This document shows, piece after piece, positions 8,728-63,976 of a stretch of DNA of 64,000 nt (its first letter is position 1; the number at the start of each line of letters is the position of its first letter). The stretch is from Escherichia virus TH44. The DNA lies in sequence record MT446415.1. The stretch is one strand, 5' to 3'. The position numbers were made by a program, and so were the translations under genes. The notes below the pieces were generated by a model. It was not told the DNA's origin and did not search any database. It saw only the letters and a list, made by a program, of their open reading frames with translations.

Positions 8728-9400
8728 AATTAATTGCGATTGTGGGTAAAAAACGCAGTGGTAAAGATACGACTGCTGATTATGTTATTAGTCAAAACGG
8801 AACAAAGTGGCAGCTTGCAGGTCCGATTAAAGAAGCGCTTTATAAAGCGTGGATTCGTCAAGACCTGCCACACAATTTGACCCTGGAAAATTTTGATGGA
8901 CAAGGTTATGACCGTGAAAAAACCTTGATAATGAACAACACCGAAGCTCATATTCTTCTGGCTGATGCTCTTGAATGGTTGAAACAACAATACAATCTCG
9001 ACCTTCCGAATCCGGATATGGTTCGTAAAATTATTGAATTTCACACACTAAATAATGTTGAGCCCTGGACAGTTAGACGTTTCATGCAGACCCTTGGAAC
9101 TGACATTGTTTGTACAGAGTTCGACAGCATGTTTTGGATTAAAACTTTTGCCTGCGACTATCTTGACAACCTCTATTCTGGATATAAATATTACGTTGTC
9201 CCAGATGTTCGCCAAAAGAACGAACTTGATTCGCTTCGGGCGATGGGTGCTACAATAATCTTTGTAGAACGCGATGAAGCAAATCATTCTACTGATACAC
9301 ACATTACGGAAGCTGGACTTCCACCACTAGCTAGTGACATTGTTATTAAAAACGATGGCACACTCGAAGAACTTTTTGATAAAATTAATAAGGTAATATA

Positions 9401-9401
<1 letters not shown>
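8724..9401 (+). CDS. 1: deoxynucleoside monophosphate kinase gp1
   Basis: MKLIAIVGKKRSGKDTTADYV P-loop start and ...THITEAGLP...NDGTLEELF resemble T4 gp1. Confidence 0.92.
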
Positions 9402-10092
<691 letters not shown>

Positions 10093-10152
10093 TGTACAAA
10101 TGAGTGTAGGTGCAGTATTATGCACCTACGTCAACGAACAAACGGAGTTAAA

Positions 10153-10485
10153 ATGAACATCAAAACTTACAACGAGTTTTTAGCCGAATCCGCCATCAAT
10201 GAGACCAAATCAATTGATGATAGTGAAGGCTCTCTGAAATTTGGTTTATCCAAAAATGCAGATGGTGTTTTCTTTCAGATTGGTAATGAACGTTTTCAAA
10301 CGTCCAAATATTCCAAAGCTGCAGTTGAAGCTGTCCTGAAATCTGGTGGCAAGTGGAAAGGCAAAGAAGGTACTAAAGAAATTGGTATCGCTGTTGACGG
10401 TGGTATGGCTTATTTTAAAATTGGCGATGAACAATTTATTATGTCTGCTCGCGGGCGTAAAGAACTGGCAAAACTTTATAAATAA
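10153..10485 (+). CDS. CTS-tagged internal-protein-like protein
   Basis: Starts MNIKTYNEFLAES (T4 internal-protein capsid-targeting motif); ATG after ggag; track ORF starts upstream at 10120. Confidence 0.65.
   Translation: MNIKTYNEFLAESAINETKSIDDSEGSLKFGLSKNADGVFFQIGNERFQTSKYSKAAVEAVLKSGGKWKGKEGTKEIGIAVDGGMAYFKIGDEQFIMSARGRKELAKLYK
10477..10484 (+). promoter_or_regulatory. T4-type late promoter TATAAATA
   Basis: Exact octamer overlapping stop of previous gene, 9 nt before the 10494 CTS gene. Confidence 0.5.
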
Positions 10486-10493
10486 GGTTTCTT

Positions 10494-10766
10494 ATGAAAA
10501 CTTTCAATGAATTTTTCAACGAGTCACAACTGAATGAAGAAGTAAAAATTAGTAAAGCAGTCAAATCTATGATTGACAATATCAATCACCTGTATAGCAT
10601 TGACTTGACTGACCATATAACAATTGGTAACAAACGCAACTTTTTCGCGTTTGACATTTCAGAACTTGACCAGAACCAAATTAATAACATTGAGCGTTTT
10701 GCCAATGACAAGGGTCTCCGTCATGAGACGGCTGGTTATAAAAAATATGCAATTTATCTAAAATAG
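10494..10766 (+). CDS. CTS-tagged internal-protein-like protein
   Basis: Starts MKTFNEFFNES. Confidence 0.65.
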   Translation: MKTFNEFFNESQLNEEVKISKAVKSMIDNINHLYSIDLTDHITIGNKRNFFAFDISELDQNQINNIERFANDKGLRHETAGYKKYAIYLK

Positions 10767-10774
10767 GATTTCAA

Positions 10775-11074
10775 ATGCAAACGCTCCATGAATTTTTAGT
10801 AGAAAACAATTACCTGGCAGAAGCAAAAACCTGGCCTCTGGGTCTTCAGAAGAAAAACACTTTCAAATGGGTTGACTTCAAAGGTAAAGGTGACGAAGAA
10901 GATTTTATGCAACTGCGTAAAAATGGTTATACCTTCCTTGACTCCAACTATAACAAAATTACCTCTTTTAGTCAGAAGTCAAGCATTGCCTTCATTGAAA
11001 CTGGTAAGAACTCTCCTAAAGATATTTCTGACGACTTCGCCGCTTATGGTGTAATTCGTGGCGGTAAGATGTAA
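10775..11074 (+). CDS. CTS-tagged internal-protein-like protein
   Basis: Starts MQTLHEFLVEN; C-terminal ...YGVIRGGKM tail shared with the 24785 gene. Confidence 0.6.
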   Translation: MQTLHEFLVENNYLAEAKTWPLGLQKKNTFKWVDFKGKGDEEDFMQLRKNGYTFLDSNYNKITSFSQKSSIAFIETGKNSPKDISDDFAAYGVIRGGKM

Positions 11075-11083
11075 ATAACACAA

Positions 11084-11104
11084 GGGGATAATTATCCCCT
11101 TTTT
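11084..11104 (+). terminator. rho-independent terminator
   Basis: ggggataattatcccc palindrome followed by TTTTT. Confidence 0.7.
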
Positions 11105-11120
11105 ATGGCTTGGAGACAAC

Positions 11121-11363
11121 ATGAAAACTTATCAAACATTTATAACAGAATCTTCTCATGGTATGGAAGTTAAACTTGGTCAAGCCCTTGCTGAAGCTGA
11201 GCGTTTGTTTGCACGCATCAAAGAACTTGCTGATTCCGTAGATGCATCATCTTTTAAAGGTGACCAAGGCAAAGTTAAAGCTCTCCTCGCTCTTTGTTCA
11301 GACGCGGGTGAAATTGCTAAGAATGGCACCAAGATGAAAAAACGTCTGGAAGACTTAAAATAA
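11121..11363 (+). CDS. CTS-tagged internal-protein-like protein
   Basis: Starts MKTYQTFITES. Confidence 0.65.
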   Translation: MKTYQTFITESSHGMEVKLGQALAEAERLFARIKELADSVDASSFKGDQGKVKALLALCSDAGEIAKNGTKMKKRLEDLK

Positions 11364-11393
11364 GTATACGCGATGGGATAACTGCATTATAAT
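11364..11393 (+). promoter_or_regulatory. early-promoter cassette (gtatac-N18-tataat) with gggataa/ttatccc inverted repeat around the -10
   Basis: Sigma70-like spacing; followed by conserved leader tatcccatcaactactggagacaacATG. Confidence 0.55.
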
Positions 11394-11418
11394 TATCCCA
11401 TCAACTACTGGAGACAAC

Positions 11419-11697
11419 ATGAAAACTTATCAAGAATTTATTAACGAATCAATTAGTCACCCGGATATGCTGGAAGACCTGAAAGGATATCTGATGGTTA
11501 AGGCCAAACCGGTTGATGGTGGCGCATTTGAGTTGTTTCTTGTTAAAGGCGAAAACGGTCCTGATAACAAGAAAGTTTCAGCAATGATGTTGACTAAAGG
11601 TTACAAAGTCAGTTCTTCCTGGAATGCTCCATTCACTTACGCGGTAAGCCCTCGTGAACTGAAAAAAGTTAAAGCTGGGCAATATACAAAAATTTAG
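11419..11697 (+). CDS. CTS-tagged internal-protein-like protein
   Basis: Starts MKTYQEFINES. Confidence 0.7.
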   Translation: MKTYQEFINESISHPDMLEDLKGYLMVKAKPVDGGAFELFLVKGENGPDNKKVSAMMLTKGYKVSSSWNAPFTYAVSPRELKKVKAGQYTKI

Positions 11698-11726
11698 TGT
11701 ACGTGATGGGATAACTGTAGTATGAT
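11697..11726 (+). promoter_or_regulatory. early-promoter cassette (gtgtac-N18-tatgat)
   Basis: Same architecture and leader as the 11364 cassette. Confidence 0.55.
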
Positions 11727-11751
11727 TATCCCATCAACTATTGGAGACCAC

Positions 11752-12006
11752 ATGAAAACTTATCAAGAATTTATTACTGAATCTGCAAATACAAAAGTTG
11801 AGTTTGCTTATGTTGGTTCGCCGCGTGGCAGTTTTTCCAATGAGGAATTCCGTCGTTCACTGGACAATTTCATGCAGTTAAGTGCTGAAGTATCGCATGA
11901 TGGTCGTTATGACATCGTTACTATTAGCGGTTCTGAAGACCTTATCAAAAAGTGGCACAAGCAGAAAGATGTTGAGATGCGTTACTATCGTATCCCTAAA
12001 AAATAA
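11752..12006 (+). CDS. CTS-tagged internal-protein-like protein
   Basis: Starts MKTYQEFITES at internal ATG of track ORF 11722. Confidence 0.7.
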   Translation: MKTYQEFITESANTKVEFAYVGSPRGSFSNEEFRRSLDNFMQLSAEVSHDGRYDIVTISGSEDLIKKWHKQKDVEMRYYRIPKK

Positions 12007-12035
12007 GTGTACTTTTAAATGGGATAGTGTATAAT
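12007..12035 (+). promoter_or_regulatory. early-promoter cassette (gtgtac-N17-tataat)
   Basis: Followed by leader tatcccatcaactactgaggagaataaaATG. Confidence 0.55.
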
Positions 12036-12063
12036 TATCCCATCAACTACTGAGGAGAATAAA

Positions 12064-12249
12064 ATGAAACGTTGCGAATTAATTAGAAATGTTACTGCCC
12101 TTGTTGCTGTTACCACTTTTGGTTTTAACATGTTTGCTGGCTTTATGTTGAATATGCTTTCAACTTCTGAGAATATAATCTCTTTAGTAGTTGCATTTTT
12201 AATTGGTTCAATCTCTTTCGTTATGGATAAAATCTCTAAAGGTGAGTAA
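12064..12249 (+). CDS. small hydrophobic protein
   Basis: 61 aa, predicted membrane helices; cassette-driven. Confidence 0.55.
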   Translation: MKRCELIRNVTALVAVTTFGFNMFAGFMLNMLSTSENIISLVVAFLIGSISFVMDKISKGE

Positions 12250-12250
12250 A

Positions 12251-12640
12251 ATGTATAAAGTGTATGCGGATTATCAGGCAAATCCATCTGAAAAACCAGA
12301 TTGTCAAATTGGGTGGGCGCATGACACCCTGCTTGAAGCGGTAGATGAAGCTCAAAAATTAGGGTATAGTTATGTAGATATTGTTCAACCAAATGGAACA
12401 GTTATTACTCTTGAAGAATTCAAGAATATCAAAACAAACTTTTTGCTCTTTGCTGGTGATAGCTATTATCCTCGTGGCGGTTATGCTGACTTAATTGCAA
12501 AAGCTGCGACTGAAGATGAACTGCGTGATATCATTAAAGAAAACGAGAAGAAGCCTTGTTATGGTTCCAACCGTTTTGACTGGTGGCAGATTGTTAATGC
12601 CAATACGCATACTATTGTTGATGAAGGAACATGCGAATGA
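12251..12640 (+). CDS. hypothetical protein
   Basis: ATG after ggtgagtaaa; track ORF starts at 12203. Confidence 0.55.
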   Translation: MYKVYADYQANPSEKPDCQIGWAHDTLLEAVDEAQKLGYSYVDIVQPNGTVITLEEFKNIKTNFLLFAGDSYYPRGGYADLIAKAATEDELRDIIKENEKKPCYGSNRFDWWQIVNANTHTIVDEGTCE

Positions 12641-13113
12641 ATATCAAATTTGGTCAGACCATCCCTAAAGGTTATGTGATTGAAATTGAAACCTGGGAAA
12701 ATGATGGTGACAACTATAAAACCCAAACGGTATTTGGCGTAGAAGAACAAGAAATCCAACAGTACAAATATATCCTGGAACTTTTCCATGGTTCGCATTG
12801 CAATAACCGCAATAAATGTGGTAATTCAGAATGGGATGTGGTTAAACACTTGGTTATCGCCCACATTGCATCTGGTGTAAAATCTGGCCAGTTGACTTAT
12901 GAATTTTTGGATAAAGTTCTTGGTATCCAAGACTTAGAAGCCTTGCTGAATGATGATGAAGAAGCATACTATTTGAATGAAGCCCTTACTGAGCTCCTTG
13001 GTATGGCTTGCGAATATGATGGCGATTTCATGCGTGTAATTTCTTATGTTAAGCTATATATAATCGAAGAAGAAATCCGAATCCCATCTGTTAAAGCGCT
13101 TGATATGCTTTAA
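12631..13113 (+). CDS. hypothetical protein
   Basis: 160 aa ORF, start overlaps previous stop. Confidence 0.6.
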   Translation: MRMNIKFGQTIPKGYVIEIETWENDGDNYKTQTVFGVEEQEIQQYKYILELFHGSHCNNRNKCGNSEWDVVKHLVIAHIASGVKSGQLTYEFLDKVLGIQDLEALLNDDEEAYYLNEALTELLGMACEYDGDFMRVISYVKLYIIEEEIRIPSVKALDML

Positions 13114-13234
13114 CAAAAACGCGTTATTATTAATAAGTACCCTCTATTACCAAAGGTTCTTCCCTCAAAGAACCTTTCATAATAGCATGTGCTATTAATC
13201 AAACTTACTTTACTTAATTTTACTTGAGGTGTTT

Positions 13235-13504
13235 ATGTTAGTATTAAAATTAGCTTTTTACGACCCTAAAACAAAGACAACCACTACCAAACGTTGCTCT
13301 ATCTCGTATGAGTGTCAATTTGGCGAAATTCAGCATCCAACAGGCGAAACCTTTATGTCAATTGGTTGTTCAACATTCAATAAAGTCAAATTAATCCCGT
13401 TGGTTAATACGGCGGCTTATCTGGTTGCACCAGAAGAAATGACTTATCATACAATTCAGCATATGGTTAAAGATGATAATGCTCCCGCTGGATTTGTAAT
13501 TTAA
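13235..13504 (+). CDS. hypothetical protein
   Basis: ATG 7 nt after gagg (track ORF begins at GTG 13229). Confidence 0.5.
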   Translation: MLVLKLAFYDPKTKTTTTKRCSISYECQFGEIQHPTGETFMSIGCSTFNKVKLIPLVNTAAYLVAPEEMTYHTIQHMVKDDNAPAGFVI

Positions 13505-13509
13505 TTTTA

Positions 13510-13583
13510 GGCCCTGTAGCTCAATTGGTTAGAGCATCCGGCTCATAACTGGCAGGTTTCCGGTTCAAGTCCGGATGGGGCCA
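13510..13583 (+). tRNA. tRNA with CAT anticodon (Met or lysidine-type Ile2)
   Basis: Manual cloverleaf: acceptor ggccctg/tggggcc, D arm gctc..gagc, anticodon loop ctCATaa, T arm tccgg-ttcaagt-ccgga; resembles E. coli tRNA-Ile2. Confidence 0.8.
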
Positions 13584-13585
13584 CC

Positions 13586-13662
13586 CGGGGTGTAGCTCAA
13601 TTGTATAGAGCAACGGTCTTCTAAACCGTAGGTTGTGGGTTAGAATCCCACCACCCCGACCA
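13586..13662 (+). tRNA. tRNA-Arg (anticodon TCT), CCA encoded
   Basis: Manual cloverleaf: acceptor cggggtg/caccccg, anticodon stem acggt/accgt, loop ctTCTaa, T arm gtggg-ttagaat-cccac, then A+CCA. Confidence 0.88.
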
Positions 13663-13677
13663 ATTACTGAGGATATT

Positions 13678-13917
13678 ATGGTTATTAGTGAATCATATGC
13701 AGTTATGGATATAACCAGCAACGAGCTGGTTTATAGCTTTGATGAGTTTGACGAAAATGATAAACAAGTCCCATGGTTTGCATTAACTGCTCCACCTGAA
13801 CATAATAAATATCTAAGTTTCCCGACTCGCAGACTAGCAACAAATTTTATGGAATTCAATGACCTTGATTCCAATTATAAGGTTGTTAAAGTCAAATTAG
13901 CTATTACAATTGAATGA
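13678..13917 (+). CDS. hypothetical protein
   Basis: ATG after gagga; track ORF 13633 would overlap the tRNA. Confidence 0.55.
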   Translation: MVISESYAVMDITSNELVYSFDEFDENDKQVPWFALTAPPEHNKYLSFPTRRLATNFMEFNDLDSNYKVVKVKLAITIE

Positions 13918-14110
13918 GAAACCGGGTCGCTACCGGTAAGTCGTCGGACTGATGTTCCCTGGAGTATAGTTCCTCCCACGGTTTTACTGTGTTCTGGTTC
14001 TTTACTATCACAGCTGAAACGGCGCACCCTTTTAACGGAGTTTTTCCAGAGCGGACGGTGCGTCCGGTAGTACGAGAAATCAGAGCGGGTGGTGCATCCG
14101 GTACTATGGA
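13918..14110 (+). ncRNA. candidate small stable RNA (ORF-free, stem-rich)
   Basis: About 190 nt with no ORF; repeated GC-rich stems (accgggtcgctaccggt, ggacggtgcgtccggtag, gggtggtgcatccggtac); T4 has small stable RNAs in its tRNA region. Confidence 0.3.
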
Positions 14111-14111
14111 A

Positions 14112-14119
14112 TATAAATA
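14112..14119 (+). promoter_or_regulatory. T4-type late promoter TATAAATA
   Basis: Exact octamer 32 nt before the 14151 CTS-like gene. Confidence 0.55.
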
Positions 14120-14150
14120 TTAACAACAACCCTAATAATGGAAAAACAAA

Positions 14151-14534
14151 ATGCTTACATATGCAGAATTTTTAAATCGCAATACCATCACTGAATCCGT
14201 ACTGACTGAAGCTGGCAAATTTTCTTTAGTGGCTCCAGAAAAAGCCGGTGTTTCAATTGGTGACCGTGTTATGTTCAAGAAACCAGTTAATGGCGTTTCT
14301 TGGGGTATCGTAACTGGGTTTGGCATCAAAGCTAAAGACGTTAAAAACGCCGCAGCACCTGGTGCTAAACTGGCTGGTTCCAAAGTTTCAACTTATATGG
14401 TTCGCCCTAAACAGTCTCCAGGTAATGGTGCTGCTGACTGGGTTGGTGCTCCAATCGAAATCGCTCGTGATAAATTCTTGAACATCACTGACCGTGCCAA
14501 CGAACGCGCTGCAATGGCATTCGCTCGCGGATAA
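14151..14534 (+). CDS. CTS-like small protein
   Basis: Starts MLTYAEFLNRN (variant of the MKTYQEF tag); late promoter upstream. Confidence 0.6.
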   Translation: MLTYAEFLNRNTITESVLTEAGKFSLVAPEKAGVSIGDRVMFKKPVNGVSWGIVTGFGIKAKDVKNAAAPGAKLAGSKVSTYMVRPKQSPGNGAADWVGAPIEIARDKFLNITDRANERAAMAFARG

Positions 14535-14571
14535 GAACACTTGCCTTGCAGGTGGAACCCCGACAAGGTAT

Positions 14572-14600
14572 AGCCCCTTCCGAAAGGTTGGGGCTTTTTT
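14572..14600 (+). terminator. rho-independent terminator
   Basis: agcccc-ttccgaaaggtt-ggggct hairpin followed by TTTTTT. Confidence 0.75.
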
Positions 14601-23494: not shown

Positions 23495-23986
23495 ATGAAT
23501 ATATTCGAAATGTTACGCATAGATGAAGGTTGTAAGTTGGATTTGTATAAAGATACCGAAGGCTATTGGACCATTGGTATCGGGCAATTGATAACTAAGA
23601 ACCCATCAAAAGATGTAGCTCGTGCTGAGCTCGACAAGCTTATGGGTCGCGTCTGTAATGGTCGCATAACCCAGCACGAAGCTGAAACATTGTTTAATCG
23701 TTCGGTCGAAAAAGCTAAAGCCGGAATCTTGAGGCATCCTGTCTTAAAACCTGTTTATGATGTACTGGATGAAGTTCGTCGTTGTGCGCTCATTAATATG
23801 GTATTCCAGATGGGTGTTGCCGGGGTAGCTGGTTTTCCTAAGGGTATGCGATTGCTGAAGGCTAAATCATGGGAAGCCGCTGCTAAGGAACTAGCTGACT
23901 CAAGATGGTATAAAGTCCAGACTCCGAATAGGGCAAAACGAGTTATCGAAACTTTCCGTACTGGAACTTTTGACGCATACAAATAA
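23495..23986 (+). CDS. e: endolysin (T4 lysozyme)
   Basis: 163 aa; [12 protein letters not shown]...[18 protein letters not shown]...[14 protein letters not shown], near-identical pattern to T4 gpe. Confidence 0.97.
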
Positions 23987-23994
23987 GGTAAAAT

Positions 23995-24264
23995 ATGAAA
24001 ACGTATCAAGAATTTTTGGCTGAATCTGTATTAAATGAATCAGATGAAAGTCGCATGGCATTTTTAGCTAAGAAAGAAGGCTTTGAGTTTACTTCTATTA
24101 AAAAAGTTAATGGAACTTCATTTAAAGTTGGTGATTGGACCTTTGGTAACAAAGGAAATGGCCAGTGGCAAATTGTAGATAAATCTGGCAAAGAAGTGGA
24201 TTATTTGTTTAATCAGAAATTGGGTGATATCGCTAAACTTATGGGTCAATACTCTAAGAAATGA
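23995..24264 (+). CDS. CTS-tagged internal-protein-like protein
   Basis: Starts MKTYQEFLAES. Confidence 0.7.
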   Translation: MKTYQEFLAESVLNESDESRMAFLAKKEGFEFTSIKKVNGTSFKVGDWTFGNKGNGQWQIVDKSGKEVDYLFNQKLGDIAKLMGQYSKK

Positions 24265-24293
24265 TGTACATCTCCAAACGATAGGGTTATAAT
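24264..24293 (+). promoter_or_regulatory. early-promoter cassette (atgtac-N18-tataat)
   Basis: Leader ccctatcaactacggagaataaacATG before denV. Confidence 0.5.
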
Positions 24294-24319
24294 GACCCTA
24301 TCAACTACGGAGAATAAAC

Positions 24320-24736
24320 ATGACTCGTATTAATTTAACCCTGGTATCTGAACTTGCCGACCAACATCTTATGGCTGAATACCGTGAACTTCCTCGCGTG
24401 TTTGGTGCGGTTCGTAAGCATGTGCAAAATGGTAAAAAGGTTTCTGACTTTAAAATCCCATCATCTTTTCTTTTAGGGACTGGTCATGTCACCTTCTTTT
24501 ATGATAAACTTTTGTTCCTTAAAAACCGCCATCAAGAACTTATTGCGGAATGTTTAAAGCGAGGGTTTAACATAAAAGATATTTCTACCCAGGATTTAAA
24601 TGATATTCCTGATGAATGGAAGAATGATTATCAACCATCAATCTGGTCAATTGAAATCAGTCAAGCCAGACTGAATGAGAAAATTTCTCAAAAGCCTACC
24701 TGGTACAAATACTATGGGAAAGCTGTGTACGCTTAA
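24320..24736 (+). CDS. denV: endonuclease V (pyrimidine-dimer DNA glycosylase)
   Basis: 138 aa; [35 protein letters not shown]...[13 protein letters not shown], near-identical to T4 DenV. Confidence 0.96.
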
Positions 24737-24784: not shown

Positions 24785-25048
24785 ATGAAAACTTATCAAG
24801 AATTTATTACTGAATCTGCCAAAGCTCCTGCTGGTTCTTTTAAAGTTCGCGCCTTCGCGGGTGATGCTGAAGACTTTGGCACCATGAAGCGTAACGGTTA
24901 TTCTTTCTTTGGCGGAGATGGTAAAGAAATTGTAACCTATGCAAAACGTCGCGAAATCGCATTTGTGGTTGCTGGTAAGAAAGTTGATGTTGACGATATT
25001 GAATGGGACTTTGAGACCTTTGGTATTGTTTCTGGCGGTAAAGCATAA
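24785..25048 (+). CDS. CTS-tagged internal-protein-like protein
   Basis: Starts MKTYQEFITES at internal ATG of track ORF 24746; C-terminal ...FGIVSGGKA tail shared with the 10775 gene. Confidence 0.7.
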   Translation: MKTYQEFITESAKAPAGSFKVRAFAGDAEDFGTMKRNGYSFFGGDGKEIVTYAKRREIAFVVAGKKVDVDDIEWDFETFGIVSGGKA

Positions 25049-25050
25049 CT

Positions 25051-25079
25051 GTTTACTTTATGATGGGATAGTGTATAAT
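25051..25079 (+). promoter_or_regulatory. early-promoter cassette (GTTTAC-N17-TATAAT)
   Basis: Best match to a T4 early promoter in the window; gggata/ttatccc repeat; conserved leader. Confidence 0.6.
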
Positions 25080-25107
25080 TATCCCATCAACTACTGAGGA
25101 GAATAAA

Positions 25108-25305
25108 ATGTTAACTTATAAAGAATTTATGAAAGAAGTTAAAAAACTTAAAAAGACTTCTGGTGATGTTAAAATTGAAATCCATGGCCAAACCGTAAAT
25201 GCGGTAGCGGATGGTCAGGCATTAGTTCTTTATAGTGATAAAGACCAAGAATTTCGCGAAGCACAAAAGAAAAAATTTACCGTGTGGCTCAAAAAAGCTG
25301 TTTAA
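25108..25305 (+). CDS. CTS-like small basic protein
   Basis: Starts MLTYKEFMKEV. Confidence 0.6.
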   Translation: MLTYKEFMKEVKKLKKTSGDVKIEIHGQTVNAVADGQALVLYSDKDQEFREAQKKKFTVWLKKAV

Positions 25306-25313
25306 GGACCAAT

Positions 25314-25613
25314 ATGAAAACTTATCAAGAATTTATCACAGAAGCCAAAGCCCCTAAAGCATTCCAAATTGGAGTCCAAGGCAATTTAGACCAACAATAT
25401 GTTGATGCTATTGTAGCAAGCCTCGGTAAACAGGGTGTACAAGTGGATTTGGTTGATTTTACTAAAGGCAATACTTTTAATATTGTCACATCTAAAGGTT
25501 CTTTAGCTAAAGTTAAAAAGGCCTTTGGTGTAGCACAAGCATATGAAATCGACCACTCTGAATTGGAAAATAAAGGTCGCCAGAACACAATTAAAGGTTC
25601 TGGTTCTTTCTAA
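25314..25613 (+). CDS. CTS-tagged internal-protein-like protein
   Basis: Starts MKTYQEFITEA at internal ATG of track ORF 25284. Confidence 0.7.
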   Translation: MKTYQEFITEAKAPKAFQIGVQGNLDQQYVDAIVASLGKQGVQVDLVDFTKGNTFNIVTSKGSLAKVKKAFGVAQAYEIDHSELENKGRQNTIKGSGSF

Positions 25614-31313: not shown

Positions 31314-31381
31314 CATTTAGGGGGTTTACAACACCATAAAAAGGGTGTACTATTATCCCATCAACTACTGAGGAGAACACA

Positions 31382-42883: not shown

Positions 42884-42913
42884 GTGTACAAGCCCCTTTG
42901 AATGATGTATCAT
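42884..42913 (+). promoter_or_regulatory. early-promoter cassette (gtgtac-N18-tatcat) in hairpin ggggtgtacaagcccc
   Basis: Leader tatcccatcaactactgatgaggaaaacataATG. Confidence 0.5.
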
Positions 42914-42944
42914 TATCCCATCAACTACTGATGAGGAAAACATA

Positions 42945-53623: not shown

Positions 53624-56338
53624 ATGCAAGAATTTTATTTAACTATCGAACAAATTGGTGACAATCTGCTCGAACGATACATTGACAAGAACGGTCATGA
53701 ACGTGTTCGTGAAATCCCTTATGCTCCATGCTTGTTTATGCACGCCCGGGAAGGTCAGGCTGCAAAGTATACAGACATCTATAATAAAGGTTGTGTGAAA
53801 AAAGAATTCGATTCCATGCGTGATGCGTCCCAGTGGATGAAGCGAATGAATGACATGGGTCTCGAAGCTATGGGTATGGATGACTTTAAACTCGCATACT
53901 TGTCCGACCGTTACCCGCACGAAATCAAATATGATTCAAGTAAAATCCGTGTTGCTAACTTCGATATCGAGGTGACATCTCCCGATGGGTTCCCTGAACC
54001 GTCTGAAGCACGTCACCCTATTGATGCCCTGACGCACTATGATTCGGTAGACGATAAATTCTATGTCTTTGACCTTTTGGGCTCACCATACGCCACTGTG
54101 GAGCAATGGTCTATTGATATTGCTGCTAAGCTACAGGAAGACGGCGGTGATGAAGTCCCTGAAGAAATCCTGGAAAAAATTGTTTATATGGCTTTCGATT
54201 CAGAAGAAGAAATGCTCCAGCAGTATTTGGTATTCTGGAACGAGAAAACTCCGGTTATGCTAACTGGTTGGAACATCGAGAAGTTTGATATTCCATATAT
54301 CTACAACCGCCTTAAAAATATATTTGGTGAAGCTACAGCAAAACGTCTGAGCCCACATCGTCGTACAAAAGTTAAGGTCATTAACAACGGCTTTGGTGAA
54401 GAACAAGAAATCATTCAGATTCTGGGTATCTCTGTTCTGGATTATCTGGACCTGTATAAAAAGTTCAGCTTCACAAACCAACCGTCTTATTCGTTGGATT
54501 ATGTTGCGGAATCTGAACTTGGTGTTGGTAAACTCCCGTATGATGGCCCGATTTCTAAACTGCGTGAATCAAATCACCAGCGGTATATTTCTTATAACAT
54601 CATCGACGTTTATCGTGTTGTGCAGATTGACCGTAAGCGGCAGTTTATTAACCTGAGCCAGTCAATGGGTTATTATGCAAAAATGCAGATTCAGTCTGTA
54701 TTCAGCCCAATCAAAACTTGGGATGCGATTATCTTTAACAGCCTGAAGACTCAAAACAAAGTCATTCCGGAAACCAAATCGCATGTTCGTCAATCGTTCC
54801 CTGGTGCATTTGTTAAGGAACCGATTCCGAACGCATACAAATATGTAATGAGCTGTGACTTAACATCTCTGTATCCGAGCATTATCCGACAGATTAACAT
54901 CAGTCCAGAAACGATTGCCGGTTCATTTGCACCAGCCCAGATGTATGAATACATCGCAGGAACTGCTGACCGTCCATCTGATACATTTAGTTGTGCTCCA
55001 AATGGTATGATGTATTTTAAAGATGTTGCGGGTATTATTCCGACAGAAGTCACCAAGGTGTTTAATCAGCGTAAAGAACACAAAGGCTATATGCTTGCGG
55101 CTCAACGTAATGGTGAACTGATTAAGGAAGCTCTGCGTAATCCAGGAACGGGTACAACCGAGCCTGAAGTTGATTATCGTTATGACTTTGATGACAATAT
55201 GAAAACGGCCCTGCATGGTCTGAATCAAACAGTCCTGAATGGTATGCTGTACAAAGCGCAGATGGAAGAAGTTGCAGGCATGACCGCACAGATTAACCGT
55301 AAACTGCTTATCAACAGTTGTTATGGCGCTCTGGGCAATATCTGGTTCCGTTACTTTGACCTGCGAAATGCGACCGCGATTACATCTTTCGGACAACTTG
55401 CATTGCAGTGGATTGAGCGTAAAGTTAACGAATACTTCGATAGTGTTTGTGGGACAAGCGGCGAAACTTATGTGTTCTATGGCGATACTGACTCCATTTA
55501 TATCCAGTGCGATAACCTTATTAAAAAGGTTGGTGGTGAATCTAAATTCCGTGATACAAACCACCTGGTTGACTTCATGGACAAGTTTGCGAAAGACCGC
55601 CTGGAACCGGCAATCGATAAAGCTTTCCGTGAGCTGGCTGAATACATGAACAACAAACAGCATCTTATGTTTATGGACCGTGAAGCGATTGCATGTCCTC
55701 CGCTGGGTTCTAAAGGTGTGGGTGGATTCTGGACGGCGAAGAAACGTTATGCGCTGAACGTGTACGATATGGAAGGCACACGTTATGCTGTTCCGAAATT
55801 GAAAATCATGGGTCTGGAAACTCAAAAGTCGAGTACTCCAAAGGCATGTCAGAAAGCTCTGAAAGAATGTATCCGCCGTATGCTGCAAGAAGGTGAAGAA
55901 TCCCTGCAGACATACTTCAAGGAATTCAATAAGGAATTTAATGAGCTTAACTATATGACCATCGCGGGTGTATCATCGGTTAACAACATCCAGAAATATA
56001 ATGAAGGTGGTTTCCCTGGATTTAAGTGCCCGGCTCATATCAAAGGTGTGCTTGCATATATGCGTGCAACTAAAGGTCTGAAGACTGTTCCGCAAATCAT
56101 GGAAGGGGAAAAGGTGTATGTACTTCCTCTTAAAGTCGGCAACCCGTTTGGTGAAACCGTGATTGCATGGCCATCTGGGATTGAACTCCCGATTGAAATC
56201 CGTGACCAGGTTCTGCAGTGGATGGATTACAGTGCTTTGTTCCAGAAGACTTTTGTTAAGCCGTTATCAGGTTTCTCTGAAGCTGCAAAGGTTGATTACG
56301 AAAAGAAAGCAACTCTTTTTGACATGTTCGACTTTTAA
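53624..56338 (+). CDS. 43: DNA polymerase gp43
   Basis: 904 aa; exo motifs FDIEV and YNIIDV, pol motifs DLTSLYPSII, KILINSCYGALG, YGDTDS. Confidence 0.98.
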   Translation: MQEFYLTIEQIGDNLLERYIDKNGHERVREIPYAPCLFMHAREGQAAKYTDIYNKGCVKKEFDSMRDASQWMKRMNDMGLEAMGMDDFKLAYLSDRYPHEIKYDSSKIRVANFDIEVTSPDGFPEPSEARHPIDALTHYDSVDDKFYVFDLLGSPYATVEQWSIDIAAKLQEDGGDEVPEEILEKIVYMAFDSEEEMLQQYLVFWNEKTPVMLTGWNIEKFDIPYIYNRLKNIFGEATAKRLSPHRRTKVKVINNGFGEEQEIIQILGISVLDYLDLYKKFSFTNQPSYSLDYVAESELGVGKLPYDGPISKLRESNHQRYISYNIIDVYRVVQIDRKRQFINLSQSMGYYAKMQIQSVFSPIKTWDAIIFNSLKTQNKVIPETKSHVRQSFPGAFVKEPIPNAYKYVMSCDLTSLYPSIIRQINISPETIAGSFAPAQMYEYIAGTADRPSDTFSCAPNGMMYFKDVAGIIPTEVTKVFNQRKEHKGYMLAAQRNGELIKEALRNPGTGTTEPEVDYRYDFDDNMKTALHGLNQTVLNGMLYKAQMEEVAGMTAQINRKLLINSCYGALGNIWFRYFDLRNATAITSFGQLALQWIERKVNEYFDSVCGTSGETYVFYGDTDSIYIQCDNLIKKVGGESKFRDTNHLVDFMDKFAKDRLEPAIDKAFRELAEYMNNKQHLMFMDREAIACPPLGSKGVGGFWTAKKRYALNVYDMEGTRYAVPKLKIMGLETQKSSTPKACQKALKECIRRMLQEGEESLQTYFKEFNKEFNELNYMTIAGVSSVNNIQKYNEGGFPGFKCPAHIKGVLAYMRATKGLKTVPQIMEGEKVYVLPLKVGNPFGETVIAWPSGIELPIEIRDQVLQWMDYSALFQKTFVKPLSGFSEAAKVDYEKKATLFDMFDF

Positions 56339-56340
56339 GT

Positions 56341-56370
56341 GTTTACAACGGCAATGGATTGCCGTATTAT
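56341..56370 (+). promoter_or_regulatory. early promoter (GTTTAC-N18-TATTAT) with palindromic spacer
   Basis: Directly after gene 43 stop; spacer contains cggcaat-gg-attgccg. Confidence 0.5.
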
Positions 56371-56407
56371 TACCTCATCAACTGATGAATAACTTAAGGA
56401 TATTAAA

Positions 56408-56650
56408 ATGGAAACATTAATTGCGGGTACTGTTGTTCTTGGTGCAGGTTCTTTCTTCCTGGCTGCACTGGCATATTTTCTGCCGTGGATTATCGCGCTG
56501 CTGCGTGGTACCAAAAGTAATTGTGGAATCTTCTTTGTTAACCTCCTGATAGGTTGGACAATGGTCGGATGGTTTATTGCATTTATCTGGGCACTCGTTG
56601 CTGAACGTAAATCAAACGCACAAGTAATTATCATCAAGGAAGCAAAATGA
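56408..56650 (+). CDS. small inner-membrane protein (Imm-like position)
   Basis: 80 aa, two TM helices; lies where T4 has imm. Confidence 0.55.
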   Translation: METLIAGTVVLGAGSFFLAALAYFLPWIIALLRGTKSNCGIFFVNLLIGWTMVGWFIAFIWALVAERKSNAQVIIIKEAK

Positions 56651-56790
56651 AGATAATTACAATTATTGTACTGATTGCATTTTTTAGTATGTCAATCTAT
56701 TGGGCAATAATGACTCCACATATGATTCCAACTTTAATTTTGGGTTGGGTATTTTTGGGGCTCCAAGCCCGCTATGAATGTTTTAATTAG
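56647..56790 (+). CDS. small membrane protein (47 aa)
   Basis: Below track cutoff; hydrophobic; ATGA overlap. Confidence 0.4.
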   Translation: MKIITIIVLIAFFSMSIYWAIMTPHMIPTLILGWVFLGLQARYECFN

Positions 56791-56798
56791 GAAGCAAA

Positions 56799-57302
56799 AT
56801 GAAAAAGTTAGCTATCGCAGCTGTTATGCTGCTATCTGGTTGTGCTTACCAGGGTGATGTTGTTAATGCCAACGAGATTGGTAAAGCGCGAATTGCTGCA
56901 GACCGTCAGGTGCATAATGGTTCCTTTGATTTCAAAGGTGGTACTGGACTTATCTACAAACGCGACAACAATCAATGTGGAAACAACTGCGCGAAATATG
57001 CTCAACAAGAAATTGAGTACAAACGCGAGCAAGCTGCGAAGCATGACGAAATCATTGCCAAGCTGGAAGCAGAAACCAAGCGACAAAATGACCTGGATAC
57101 TGTTAACCAGATTTCACAGGTCTGCATGTCATATATCAATATGCAGATAAACATCATGCGCGCAGAAGCTTATCAGGCAGCGGAGACGGGTTCTCCAAAA
57201 GCTAATGAGTACCGCGATATGTATCAGCGTTCTGCTCAAAACCGTCTGAGCTATATTAATAAATGTGTAGCTAAAGAGAAAGCACGCCAAGGTATTAACT
57301 GA
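56799..57302 (+). CDS. lipoprotein
   Basis: Signal peptide with lipobox MKKLAIAAVMLLSGC. Confidence 0.65.
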   Translation: MKKLAIAAVMLLSGCAYQGDVVNANEIGKARIAADRQVHNGSFDFKGGTGLIYKRDNNQCGNNCAKYAQQEIEYKREQAAKHDEIIAKLEAETKRQNDLDTVNQISQVCMSYINMQINIMRAEAYQAAETGSPKANEYRDMYQRSAQNRLSYINKCVAKEKARQGIN

Positions 57303-57644
57303 TGTTATTATTACTTCTGATTGTTGTAACAGTAATTGGTTTGTTGCTATTAGAAAAGCGTAATAAGCATTTGGCTGAAGAAAACTGGAAACGTGGTAAC
57401 GTTTACTAAATTACTCTGAACTGCGAGAAAAATATTATGATTGGTGCGCTATTGATTAGTCTGTGGCTGTTGTCTGCATTTGGTATTGGTTTTATGTACT
57501 GGTGGGACAAACGTCAGACCCGGAAGATTGTTGAACGTGCAATTAATCGTGGTTTCAATCGTTAATTGCTCTAAAAATACAGTGATATAATTATCCTATC
57601 TTAAACCTGTGAGAAAAATATAATGGTGCCTATGGAAAAAATGA

Positions 57645-58823
57645 ATGTCTATTGCAGATTTGAAATCCCGTTTGATTAAAGCTTCTACATCCAAAATGAC
57701 CGCGACTCTTACCAAGTCCAAGTTTTTTAATGATAAAGATGTAGTTCGTACAAAAATCCCGATGCTGAACATTGCAATCAGCGGTGCACTAGATGGTGGT
57801 ATGCAGTCAGGTTTGACTATTTTTGCTGGTCCGTCAAAACACTTTAAATCCAATATGGGTTTAACGATGGTCTCTGCATATATGAACAAATACCCCGATG
57901 CAATCTGTTTGTTCTATGATTCAGAATTTGGTATCACAGAAGCATATCTTCGTGCAATGAAAGTTGACCCGGAACGTGTTATCCATACACCAATCCAGTC
58001 GGTTGAACAATTGAAAGTTGATATGGTTAACCAGCTTGAAGCAATTGAGCGTGGTGAAAAAGTCATTATCTTTATTGACTCAATCGGTAACATGGCGTCG
58101 AAAAAAGAAACAGAAGATGCGATGAACGAAAAAGTCGTTGGCGATATGACCCGTGCTAAATCCTTGAAATCTCTATTCCGTATTGTTACTCCGTATTTTA
58201 GTATCAAGGATATTCCTTGTGTCGCGGTTAACCATACAATCGAGACGATTGAGATGTACAGCAAAACCGTTATGACTGGTGGTACTGGTGTTATGTATTC
58301 TGCTGATACCGTATTCATTATCGGTAAACGCCAGATTAAAGAAACCGGTAAAGAACTTGAAGGTTTCCAATTTGTTCTGAACGCCGAAAAATCTCGTATG
58401 GTCAAAGAGAAAAGTAAATTCTTCATTGATGTAAAATTCGATGGTGGGATTGACCCGTATTCTGGCCTGCTTGATATGGCAATGGAAATCGGATTTGTGG
58501 TGAAACCGAAAGTTGGTTGGTATAACCGTGAATATCTTGATGTTGAGACCGGTGAAATGGTCCGCGAAGAAAAATCATGGCGTGCAAAAGATACCAACTG
58601 TACTGAATTCTGGGGCCCGTTGTTCAAGCACGAACCTTTCCGTGACGCAATCAAACGTCATTACCAGCTGGGTGCAATCGATAGCAATGCTGTTGTTGAT
58701 GCCGAAGTTGATGCGCTTATTGCCTCCAAGGTTGAAAAATACTCCGCTCCTGAAGGTAAGACAAAACCGTCCGCGGCAGATATCGAAAACGATTTAGATA
58801 TGATGGAAGACCTTGATGAATGA
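57645..58823 (+). CDS. uvsX: RecA-like recombinase UvsX
   Basis: 392 aa; LKSRLIKASTSK, GPSKHFKSN (Walker A), VIIFIDSIGN, near-identical to T4 UvsX. Confidence 0.97.
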   Translation: MSIADLKSRLIKASTSKMTATLTKSKFFNDKDVVRTKIPMLNIAISGALDGGMQSGLTIFAGPSKHFKSNMGLTMVSAYMNKYPDAICLFYDSEFGITEAYLRAMKVDPERVIHTPIQSVEQLKVDMVNQLEAIERGEKVIIFIDSIGNMASKKETEDAMNEKVVGDMTRAKSLKSLFRIVTPYFSIKDIPCVAVNHTIETIEMYSKTVMTGGTGVMYSADTVFIIGKRQIKETGKELEGFQFVLNAEKSRMVKEKSKFFIDVKFDGGIDPYSGLLDMAMEIGFVVKPKVGWYNREYLDVETGEMVREEKSWRAKDTNCTEFWGPLFKHEPFRDAIKRHYQLGAIDSNAVVDAEVDALIASKVEKYSAPEGKTKPSAADIENDLDMMEDLDE

Positions 58824-60600: not shown

Positions 60601-60670
60601 ATTTAGGGGGTTTACATCCTCATAAAAGGGGTGTACTATTATCCCATCAACTACTGATGAGGATAATAAA

Positions 60671-63623: not shown

Positions 63624-63789
63624 GATTTCTGTCTTCCAGATTTTTGAAGAATATGAAATCGTGTCGCAAGACCAAGAAGCAATCCATGTTATCGCTGATG
63701 ATGGTGTTACCTGGATTATTCCGTTGTATCATGAAGACACTTATGAAGTGACTGATGCAAATGGTGATAAAGCTATCTTCGTTGTATAA
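63598..63789 (+). CDS. hypothetical protein
   Basis: 63 aa ORF overlapping previous gene end. Confidence 0.4.
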   Translation: MSAMCTGSKISVFQIFEEYEIVSQDQEAIHVIADDGVTWIIPLYHEDTYEVTDANGDKAIFVV

Positions 63790-63792
63790 ATA
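63785..63792 (+). promoter_or_regulatory. T4-type late promoter TATAAATA
   Basis: Exact octamer 17 nt before the 63809 CTS-like ORF. Confidence 0.55.
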
Positions 63793-63808: not shown

Positions 63809-63976
63809 ATGAAAACATTCAAAGATTTTATCAACGAAGATATGGTTGCTGGTGACGCAGGTGGAAACCCAACTAATATCGCAACAGGTACCACTTCCGG
63901 GGCAGTTGTCAATAAAGGCCCTGAACAAATCCCATCAAAAAAGCGTAAGAACAAAGACGATAAACCTACAGTATAA
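63809..63976 (+). CDS. CTS-like small protein (55 aa)
   Basis: Below track cutoff; starts MKTFKDFINED; ATG after aaagggggtg. Confidence 0.5.
   Translation: MKTFKDFINEDMVAGDAGGNPTNIATGTTSGAVVNKGPEQIPSKKRKNKDDKPTV

Follow-up and report, generated by a model that had tools for sequence, protein, structure and literature searches.

Why would a single T4-like phage keep a dozen small genes that open with nearly the same ten residues and then continue into mutually dissimilar proteins? The question is raised by 64,000 nucleotides of Escherichia virus TH44 (sequence record MT446415.1; the whole of this stretch is called the window), in which an earlier note had described twelve open reading frames (ORFs) with an MKTYQEF(I/L)xE-type N-terminus, that of the capsid-targeting sequence (CTS) of the T4 internal proteins (IPs). 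All twelve were found, on the + strand, and are listed below with a slash at the expected cleavage site of the prohead protease gp21. We consider it probable that they are polymorphic internal-protein (Ip) cassettes of a Gaprivervirus T4-like phage, the products of which are injected and probably act against host defence. The genes are referred to by the position of their first nucleotide.

10153..10485, + strand: CTS gene 1, leader MNIKTYNEFLAE/S, 110 aa; VR7 ORF156c, phrog_3966
10494..10766, + strand: CTS gene 2, leader MKTFNEFFNE/S; Ip9 family
10775..11074, + strand: CTS gene 3, leader MQTLHEFLVE/N, second site LAE/A; VR7 ORF154c; paralog of 24785
11121..11363, + strand: CTS gene 4, leader MKTYQTFITE/S; Ip5 family; phrog_3499 (E 2.4e-41)
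11419..11697, + strand: CTS gene 5, leader MKTYQEFINE/S; VR7 ORF153c, phrog_15565
11752..12006, + strand: CTS gene 6, leader MKTYQEFITE/S; distant Ip6 relative
14151..14534, + strand: CTS-like gene 7, leader MLTYAEFLNRNTITE/SVLTE/A, 127 aa; rare family beside the tRNA cluster
23995..24264, + strand: CTS gene 8, leader MKTYQEFLAE/S; between e and denV, the T4 ipIII/ipII position
24785..25048, + strand: CTS gene 9, leader MKTYQEFITE/S; VR7 ORF127c
25108..25305, + strand: CTS-like gene 10, leader MLTYKEFMKE/V, 65 aa; very rare cassette
25314..25613, + strand: CTS gene 11, leader MKTYQEFITE/A; Ip7 family
63809..63976, + strand: gene 61.1, leader MKTFKDFINE/D, 55 aa

The leader was searched for in six frames with the expression M-x-T-[YFLW]-x-x-F-[ILMFV]-x-[ER], which gave 11 matches as against 0.04–0.06 in 200 shuffles (shuffle maximum 1); a strict DNA pattern, MKT[YF]x[DE]Fx-x-E, gave seven matches in the window as against 0.00. 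With 11–12 occurrences where about 0.05 were expected, a chance origin of the motif was ruled out. No additional CTS genes were obtained by a looser scan of the window. A Shine–Dalgarno sequence (SD) was recognisable for all 12 genes, being weak at 14151 and 24785.

In T4, targeting depends mainly on CTS positions 4 and 7 and processing on positions 8 and 10; with Asp10, cleavage is prevented and targeting left intact, and the leaders range from 10 to 19 residues (PMC9026906, section 2.6); the CTS is enough by itself to package foreign proteins (PMC9026906, PMC3012670, PMC12373910). The consensus of the window leaders is MKTYQEF[IL]xE, with variants that include MNIKTYNEFLAE, MLTYAEFLNRNTITESVLTE, MLTYKEFMKE and MKTFNEFFNE. 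The targeting positions are kept in 12/12 genes (position 7 being F throughout and position 4 one of Y, F and L, with a shift of two residues in 10153), whereas Glu10 is present in 11/12 and I/L8 in 9/12, both processing positions together being strictly kept in 9/12. A second [LI]-x-E site lies inside the first 17 residues of 10153, 10494, 10775 and 23995, and the extended leader EFLAES[AV][IL]NE is common to 10153 and 23995. The description of the leader in the earlier note holds for the set but not for 14151, which has Arg instead of Glu at position 10, and the length of about ten residues given there for the tag of T4 IPI has to be corrected to 19 (MKTFKEFTSTTTPVSTITE, cut at residue 19). 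The product of 14151, with ITE at residues 13–15 and LTE at 18–20, resembling ITE(19) of T4 IPI, would from its sequence need an alternative cleavage site.

At 10153 the ancestral ATG reads ATC and an ATG two codons upstream is used, so that the leader reads MNIKTYNEFLAE (MNIKTY...) and the tag is displaced by two residues. The orthologs of this gene in other phages begin directly at MKTY..EF. Because of these orthologs and of a GGAG 8 nt upstream, the start at 10153 was preferred over the alternative at 10120 (121 aa), which is that of the VR7 annotation.

The genome setting was established by sequence comparison. Region 9400–14600 is matched by 751 phage records, none of which contains the whole of it, and the closest, those of Escherichia phages EAWsc9, TH41, UPEC01 and ECML-359 (94–95% coverage, 96–98% identity), are all members of the genus Gaprivervirus (the VR7/VR20/SP18 group within Tevenvirinae). 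The window belongs to a Gaprivervirus (VR7/VR20 group), a T4-like coliphage, and its gene order is that of T4 reversed:

9401–9637: gene 57A
9637–10092: gene 57B
3' of 57B: small-gene cluster, leading to trna.4/trna.3 and tRNAs
23495–23986: e, which follows nudE
24320–24736: denV
3' of denV: second small-gene cluster, leading to vs.8 and, further on, gene 43, uvsX, 41, 61.1 and 61

In this order, the classical internal-protein loci hold 10/12 CTS genes by synteny. Six (10153, 10494, 10775, 11121, 11419 and 11752) lie between 57B and trna.4, at the position of T4 ipI, and four (23995, 24785, 25108 and 25314) at the e/denV locus, the position of T4 ipII/ipIII. The remaining two are found outside these hyperplastic loci, 14151 adjoining the tRNA cluster and 63809 upstream of the primase gene 61. 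The close relative VR7 encodes gp20, 67, 68, 21, 22 and 23, the corresponding genes lying outside the 64-kb window. As a separate observation, the 57B homolog (9637–10092), directly upstream of the first cluster, is an anti-CBASS Acb1 (cyclic-nucleotide phosphodiesterase) in the annotation of a relative; by that annotation a known anti-defence gene adjoins the ip cassettes.

Seven genes matched PHROG families of the type 'internal head/virion protein', and in the annotation of VR7 and ECML-359 four belong to named families: 10494 to Ip9, 11121 to Ip5, 11752 to an Ip6-like family and 25314 to Ip7. Identity to the VR7 proteins is 98% for 10494 and Ip9 (phrog_7673, 'internal head protein', E 2.5e-56), 97% for 25314 and Ip7 (phrog_2667, E 8e-43) and 42% for 11752 and Ip6 (phrog_8111, 'internal virion protein'). 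11121, the ortholog of which is labelled ip5 in ECML-359, has no counterpart in VR7, relative to which it is an insertion; 23995, also absent from VR7, matched phrog_8765 ('internal virion protein', E 4.6e-37).

The mutual dissimilarity of the mature regions, reported before with the exception of 10775 and 24785, was confirmed by a leader-trimmed comparison, in which these two formed the sole significant pair (38% over 61 aa, E 1e-14); in PHROGs, 25314 is grouped with both (remote-homology family phrog_2667). The profile and structure-based searches that had been proposed for the mature domains yielded the PHROG families and a fold prediction for 10153, but no Pfam domain above threshold in any of the 12 proteins. 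A similarity of 25108 to tRNA_Me_trans_C (20.1 bits, cut-off 20.6) was treated as noise, and a PDB sequence search with 10153, 14151 and 25314 gave no usable match. The mature part of 10153 contains an internal duplication (GVFFQIGNERFQTSK / MAYFKIGDEQFIMSA) and is predicted to adopt a Whirly/PUR-like double (beta4-alpha) fold, the match being at 5–13% sequence identity with a model of moderate confidence (pLDDT 76); a BFVD search with this model retrieved its own ortholog and otherwise just phage proteins without annotation. The model of 24785 (pLDDT 84) suggests a generic alpha+beta sandwich, without an informative structural match.

Two of the genes are rare. 25108 occurs in 1/50,697 phage records (TH41) and had no match in the PHROG family search. 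14151 was found in 15 phage records (Gaprivervirus), all about 100% identical, and as a single near-identical cluster in a database of 5.8 billion proteins. When the leader was trimmed, HMMER over 1.84 billion representatives gave two real relatives of 14151, P0018 and P0019, with 43–47% identity and N-termini MYTFKEFLVESELDLITEA (MYTFKEFLVE) and MKSFKEFMLSE, respectively. Since both begin CTS-like, the tag is a conserved feature of the 14151 family; the leader is retained while the remainder diverges, as also in the homologs of 10153 at 51–72% identity. An origin of 14151 as a captured cellular domain was considered and rejected, as both relatives are CTS-like at the N-terminus and a tag-less cellular ancestor is unsupported. 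The GC content of 14151 is 45% as compared with 40% for the window, and its product is rich in Ala, Gly and Pro. In P0018 (202 aa), the tag is separated by an additional N-terminal domain from the C-terminal domain shared with 14151.

The mature parts of ten of the 12 proteins have a pI of 8.8–10.0, and the other two are near neutral (6.2 and 6.8). A basic character would also be expected if most of the products were not effectors at all, but DNA-associated head fillers with a structural or charge-neutralising role, or assembly aids of the IPIII type, their diversity reflecting weak constraint. The T4 IPs, each numbering about 300 copies, bind DNA at low salt, and head assembly is defective in IPIII mutants (PMC9026906); the fold predicted for the 10153 cargo, that of Whirly, PUR-alpha and MRP1-MRP2, is typical of single-stranded nucleic-acid binders, although the fold members SsgA and ErpC bind no nucleic acids. 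We nevertheless hold this explanation to be improbable, since all three T4 IPs have specific anti-GmrSD activity (PMC12373910), two of the cargos are near neutral, and near-identical phages differ by the gain and loss of cassettes, as is typical of accessory anti-defence genes.

The sequences upstream of the CTS genes are of two kinds. The T4 late promoter TATAAATA occurs six times on the + strand of the window, and 3/6 lie 17–39 nt upstream of CTS genes, namely 17 nt from 10494, 39 nt from 14151 and, at 63785–63792, 24 nt from 63809. Other genes have in front of them a repeated element, GATGGGATAACTG..TATAATTATCCCATCAACTAC, a hairpin that overlaps a sigma-70-type promoter. Eight copies of the hairpin-promoter pattern GGGATAA..TATAAT..TTATCCCATCAACTAC were found in the window, as against 0 expected, five of the eight being located in the two ip loci. 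The hairpins are stable (−12.6 to −17.2 kcal/mol, z −3.8 to −6.5), and the sigma-70-type promoters match 10/12 at 24265 and 25052. The elements, which match the promoter-early stem-loop (PeSL) of T4-like phages, are the following:

11357..11450, + strand: 94-nt direct repeat, copy 1, with PeSL-like hairpin-promoter, SD and CTS codons; left joint of the 11419 cassette
11690..11783, + strand: 94-nt direct repeat, copy 2, 88% identical to copy 1; right joint of the 11419 cassette
12019..12050, + strand: PeSL-like hairpin that contains TATAAT, at the end of the first ip cluster and upstream of trna.4
24265..24308, + strand: degenerate PeSL element together with a sigma-70-like promoter, in front of denV
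25052..25094, + strand: PeSL-like hairpin-promoter upstream of 25108; promoter 10/12, hairpin −17.2 kcal/mol, z −6.5
31348–31368, 42908–42928 and 60634–60654: further hairpin-promoter copies

As compared with EAWsc9 and ECML-359, the window contains one extra unit of 333 bp (gene 11419), bounded by the 94-nt direct repeats, and the single repeat copy of these relatives aligns to both. Relative to VR7, Ip5 (11121) is inserted and the Ip6-type gene has a different body, exchanged between breakpoints at 11786, immediately behind the CTS, and at 11993, at the stop codon/hairpin. The window has 23995 and 25108 in addition and lacks ip10, the junction falling within the CTS. As the borders of these indels and replacements fall at the CTS codons and the hairpin-promoter, both act as homology joints of exchangeable cassettes, and because the 94-nt repeat reaches the CTS codons the protein tag itself is part of the recombination joint. 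This mechanism was reportedly foreshadowed in Repoila et al. 1994 and worked out by Arbiol et al. 2010; Comeau et al. 2014 (PMC4122927) took it further, and the window resembles the PeSL shuffling of T4-like phages described there both in the repeated hairpin over a sigma-70-type promoter between small accessory genes and in the repeats that border indels between relatives. A stable stem-loop, an early-type promoter, repetition and indel borders, by which PeSLs are recognised, were all found in the window elements. The differences are that the repeat unit of the window ip locus spans 94 nt, past the SD and on into the CTS codons, and that the stem GGGATAA/TTATCCC is specific to the lineage of the window.

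Cassette breakpoints at the CTS would also be expected if the shared 5' sequence were kept mainly as a DNA recombination joint and translation-initiation module, some of the ORFs (especially 14151, 25108, 10153 and 63809) then encoding cytoplasmic early proteins with a relic leader that are never packaged. The CTS codons are nearly identical at synonymous sites, 11752 and 24785 being the same over 30 nt, but the leader is kept at the protein level in distant homologs despite DNA divergence. Sigma-70-type early promoters lie within the PeSL hairpins at several genes, but late promoters precede 10494, 14151 and 63809. T4 IP genes, moreover, are generally known to be expressed both early and late. 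The loss of the original ATG by 10153 and of Glu10 by 14151 would fit relic leaders, whereas the CTS alone is enough for packaging in T4 (PMC9026906). This explanation is regarded as slightly more improbable still than that of head fillers.

Returning to the twelve genes as Ip cassettes, we infer packaging, cleavage, injection and anti-defence activity along the following lines. Each gene would encode a small, usually basic protein, the first ten or so residues of which, the CTS, would bind the gp22/gp21 scaffolding core, so that the protein would be enclosed as the prohead shell forms. After cleavage by gp21 behind the Glu of [LI]-x-E, the freed mature domain would remain in the head with the DNA and then be ejected into the next host cell, where, by analogy with T4 IPI, IPII and IPIII, it would most likely block host defence at DNA entry. 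Turnover of the cassettes, with the CTS codons at the 5' end and the hairpin-promoter at the 3' end as homology joints, would produce different gene combinations in related phages. The proposal of a single delivery tag on diversifying injected effectors, made in the earlier note, is supported by synteny, annotation, leader residues, the basic mature parts and the retention of the leader in homologs, down to identities of 43–63%.

Gene 63809 had been counted among the genes with tagged cargo. The tag is present, but the cargo is not novel, the gene being the conserved gene 61.1, which is 100% identical to VR7 gp61.1, is located immediately upstream of the primase gene 61 and occurs in 1261 phage records, including those of Acinetobacter and Aeromonas T4-likes and of T4 itself (MKTFKEFIKED...), where gp61.1 has the same architecture. 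Residues 2–46 of gp61.1 align in register with residues 57–101 of T4 gp23 (44% identity, E 2e-10). It also aligns to VR7 gp23, which carries the same FLTE/A site, and a PDB sequence search returned gp23 chains only (E 8.9e-5). The alignment places FINE/D of gp61.1 on FLTE/A of gp23, the gp21 cleavage site, and by this similarity gp61.1 is a mini-paralog or mimic of the major capsid protein gp23 around that site. It may, for this gene only, be a decoy or regulator that mimics the propeptide-mature junction of gp23, for instance by competing for gp21 or for scaffold/shell contacts in head maturation. The in-register alignment including FLTE/A, the conservation across distant T4-like phages, unlike that of cassette-type Ips, and the late promoter directly upstream agree with such a role, to which we give considerable weight without favouring it; the N-terminus MKTFKEF is found in T4 IPI as well, so that gp61.1 could simply be packaged like an Ip, and neither functional literature nor experimental data on gp61.1 were found.

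Several observations weigh against the Ip-cassette reading. 63809, as a gp23 mimic, follows a different evolutionary logic, unlike arbitrary cargo. Some leaders are deviant, with two extra N-terminal residues in 10153, Phe8 in 10494, Met8 in 25108 and Arg10 in 14151. The IPI_T4 profile (PF11634) had no match among the 12 window proteins even at E<=1 (control T4 IPI, 7e-54), and leader-trimmed BLASTP against the mature domains of T4 IPII/IPIII had none below E 0.15; as the mature domains are unlike those of T4 IPI, IPII and IPIII, anti-restriction activity is proposed by analogy only. No virion-proteome paper covering these 12 proteins or the Ips of the VR7 group was found. In the VR7 annotation the syntenic sites lack gene 42, alpha-gt and beta-gt, 42.1 and a-gt.2-5 remaining, and between gene 43 and uvsX the window (56338–57645) has no ORF of the size that dCMP hydroxymethylase (gene 42) or beta-glucosyltransferase would require. 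Gapriverviruses are without known modified-base enzymes, but retain Alc, DenB and dCTPase (PMC8056088); the DNA of VR7 reportedly contains modified, unglycosylated cytosines of unknown biosynthesis, and BREX blocks VR7 more than 10^11-fold (PMC6326788). In a lineage without glucosylation of hydroxymethylcytosine (hmC), the known Ip targets, which are enzymes recognising glucosyl-hmC, may not be the relevant ones. The a-gt region of the window is located near 45–47 kb.

A bolder interpretation, which we find doubtful, is that the enlarged CTS repertoire is now directed against defences different from the glucosyl-hmC-specific GmrSD enzymes, the targets of T4 Ip1–3, and may include new effector classes, such as an injected Whirly/PUR-like nucleic-acid-binding 10153, and, separately, that gp61.1 is a CTS-type head protein universal among T4-like phages and so far overlooked, a mimic of the N-terminal arm of the capsid's major protein.

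Variable internal-protein cassettes of T-even phages were reportedly described by Repoila et al. 1994 (EMBO J 13:4181), which is known to us only through citing papers. T-even internal proteins are highly diverse, have only the CTS in common and co-evolve with host restriction (PMC3012670 and PMC9026906, both of which cite Repoila et al. 1994); Ip1, Ip2 and Ip3 are inhibitors of one distinct GmrSD variant each, and at least ten Ips have been reported (PMC12373910, 2025). Since diverse CTS-sharing internal proteins are already described in these three papers, the effector-delivery reading is correct but established (Repoila 1994; the reviews by Black; Silas 2025). The window shares with the T-even system the CTS, identical or near-identical to T4 MKTYQEFIAE, the same two loci, the size range, the basic character and the mutually unrelated mature parts, and four of its genes are homologous to Ip5, Ip6, Ip7 and Ip9. 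It differs in having no homologs of the IPI (PF11634), IPII and IPIII mature domains, in belonging to a lineage without hmC-glucosylation genes and in the rare families of 14151 and 25108, which carry no Ip annotation. The strict DNA pattern occurs seven times in the 64-kb window, as against 1–6 times per whole genome in 28 genome-sized T4-like IMG/VR contigs (six from a contig of 170,336 bp), so that the repertoire is at the top of the range and the same in kind.

The clusters are also similar to anti-CRISPR/anti-defence hotspots, in which small, mutually unrelated, rapidly exchanged accessory genes are clustered at fixed positions. In contrast to these, the window products carry a packaging signal and would presumably be pre-made and delivered with the DNA, whereas the products of hotspots are expressed after entry. 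The new points are modest, and comprise the large repertoire, the rare unannotated 14151 and 25108, the fold predicted for 10153 and the lineage without hmC-glucosylation genes.

The delivery principle itself was already known. Injected internal proteins act ahead of any phage gene expression, and so help to set which wild hosts can be infected by a therapeutic T4-like phage. Targets are known for T4 Ip1–3 only, and the window adds about ten tagged candidates for anti-defence screens, from a lineage with a different DNA modification.

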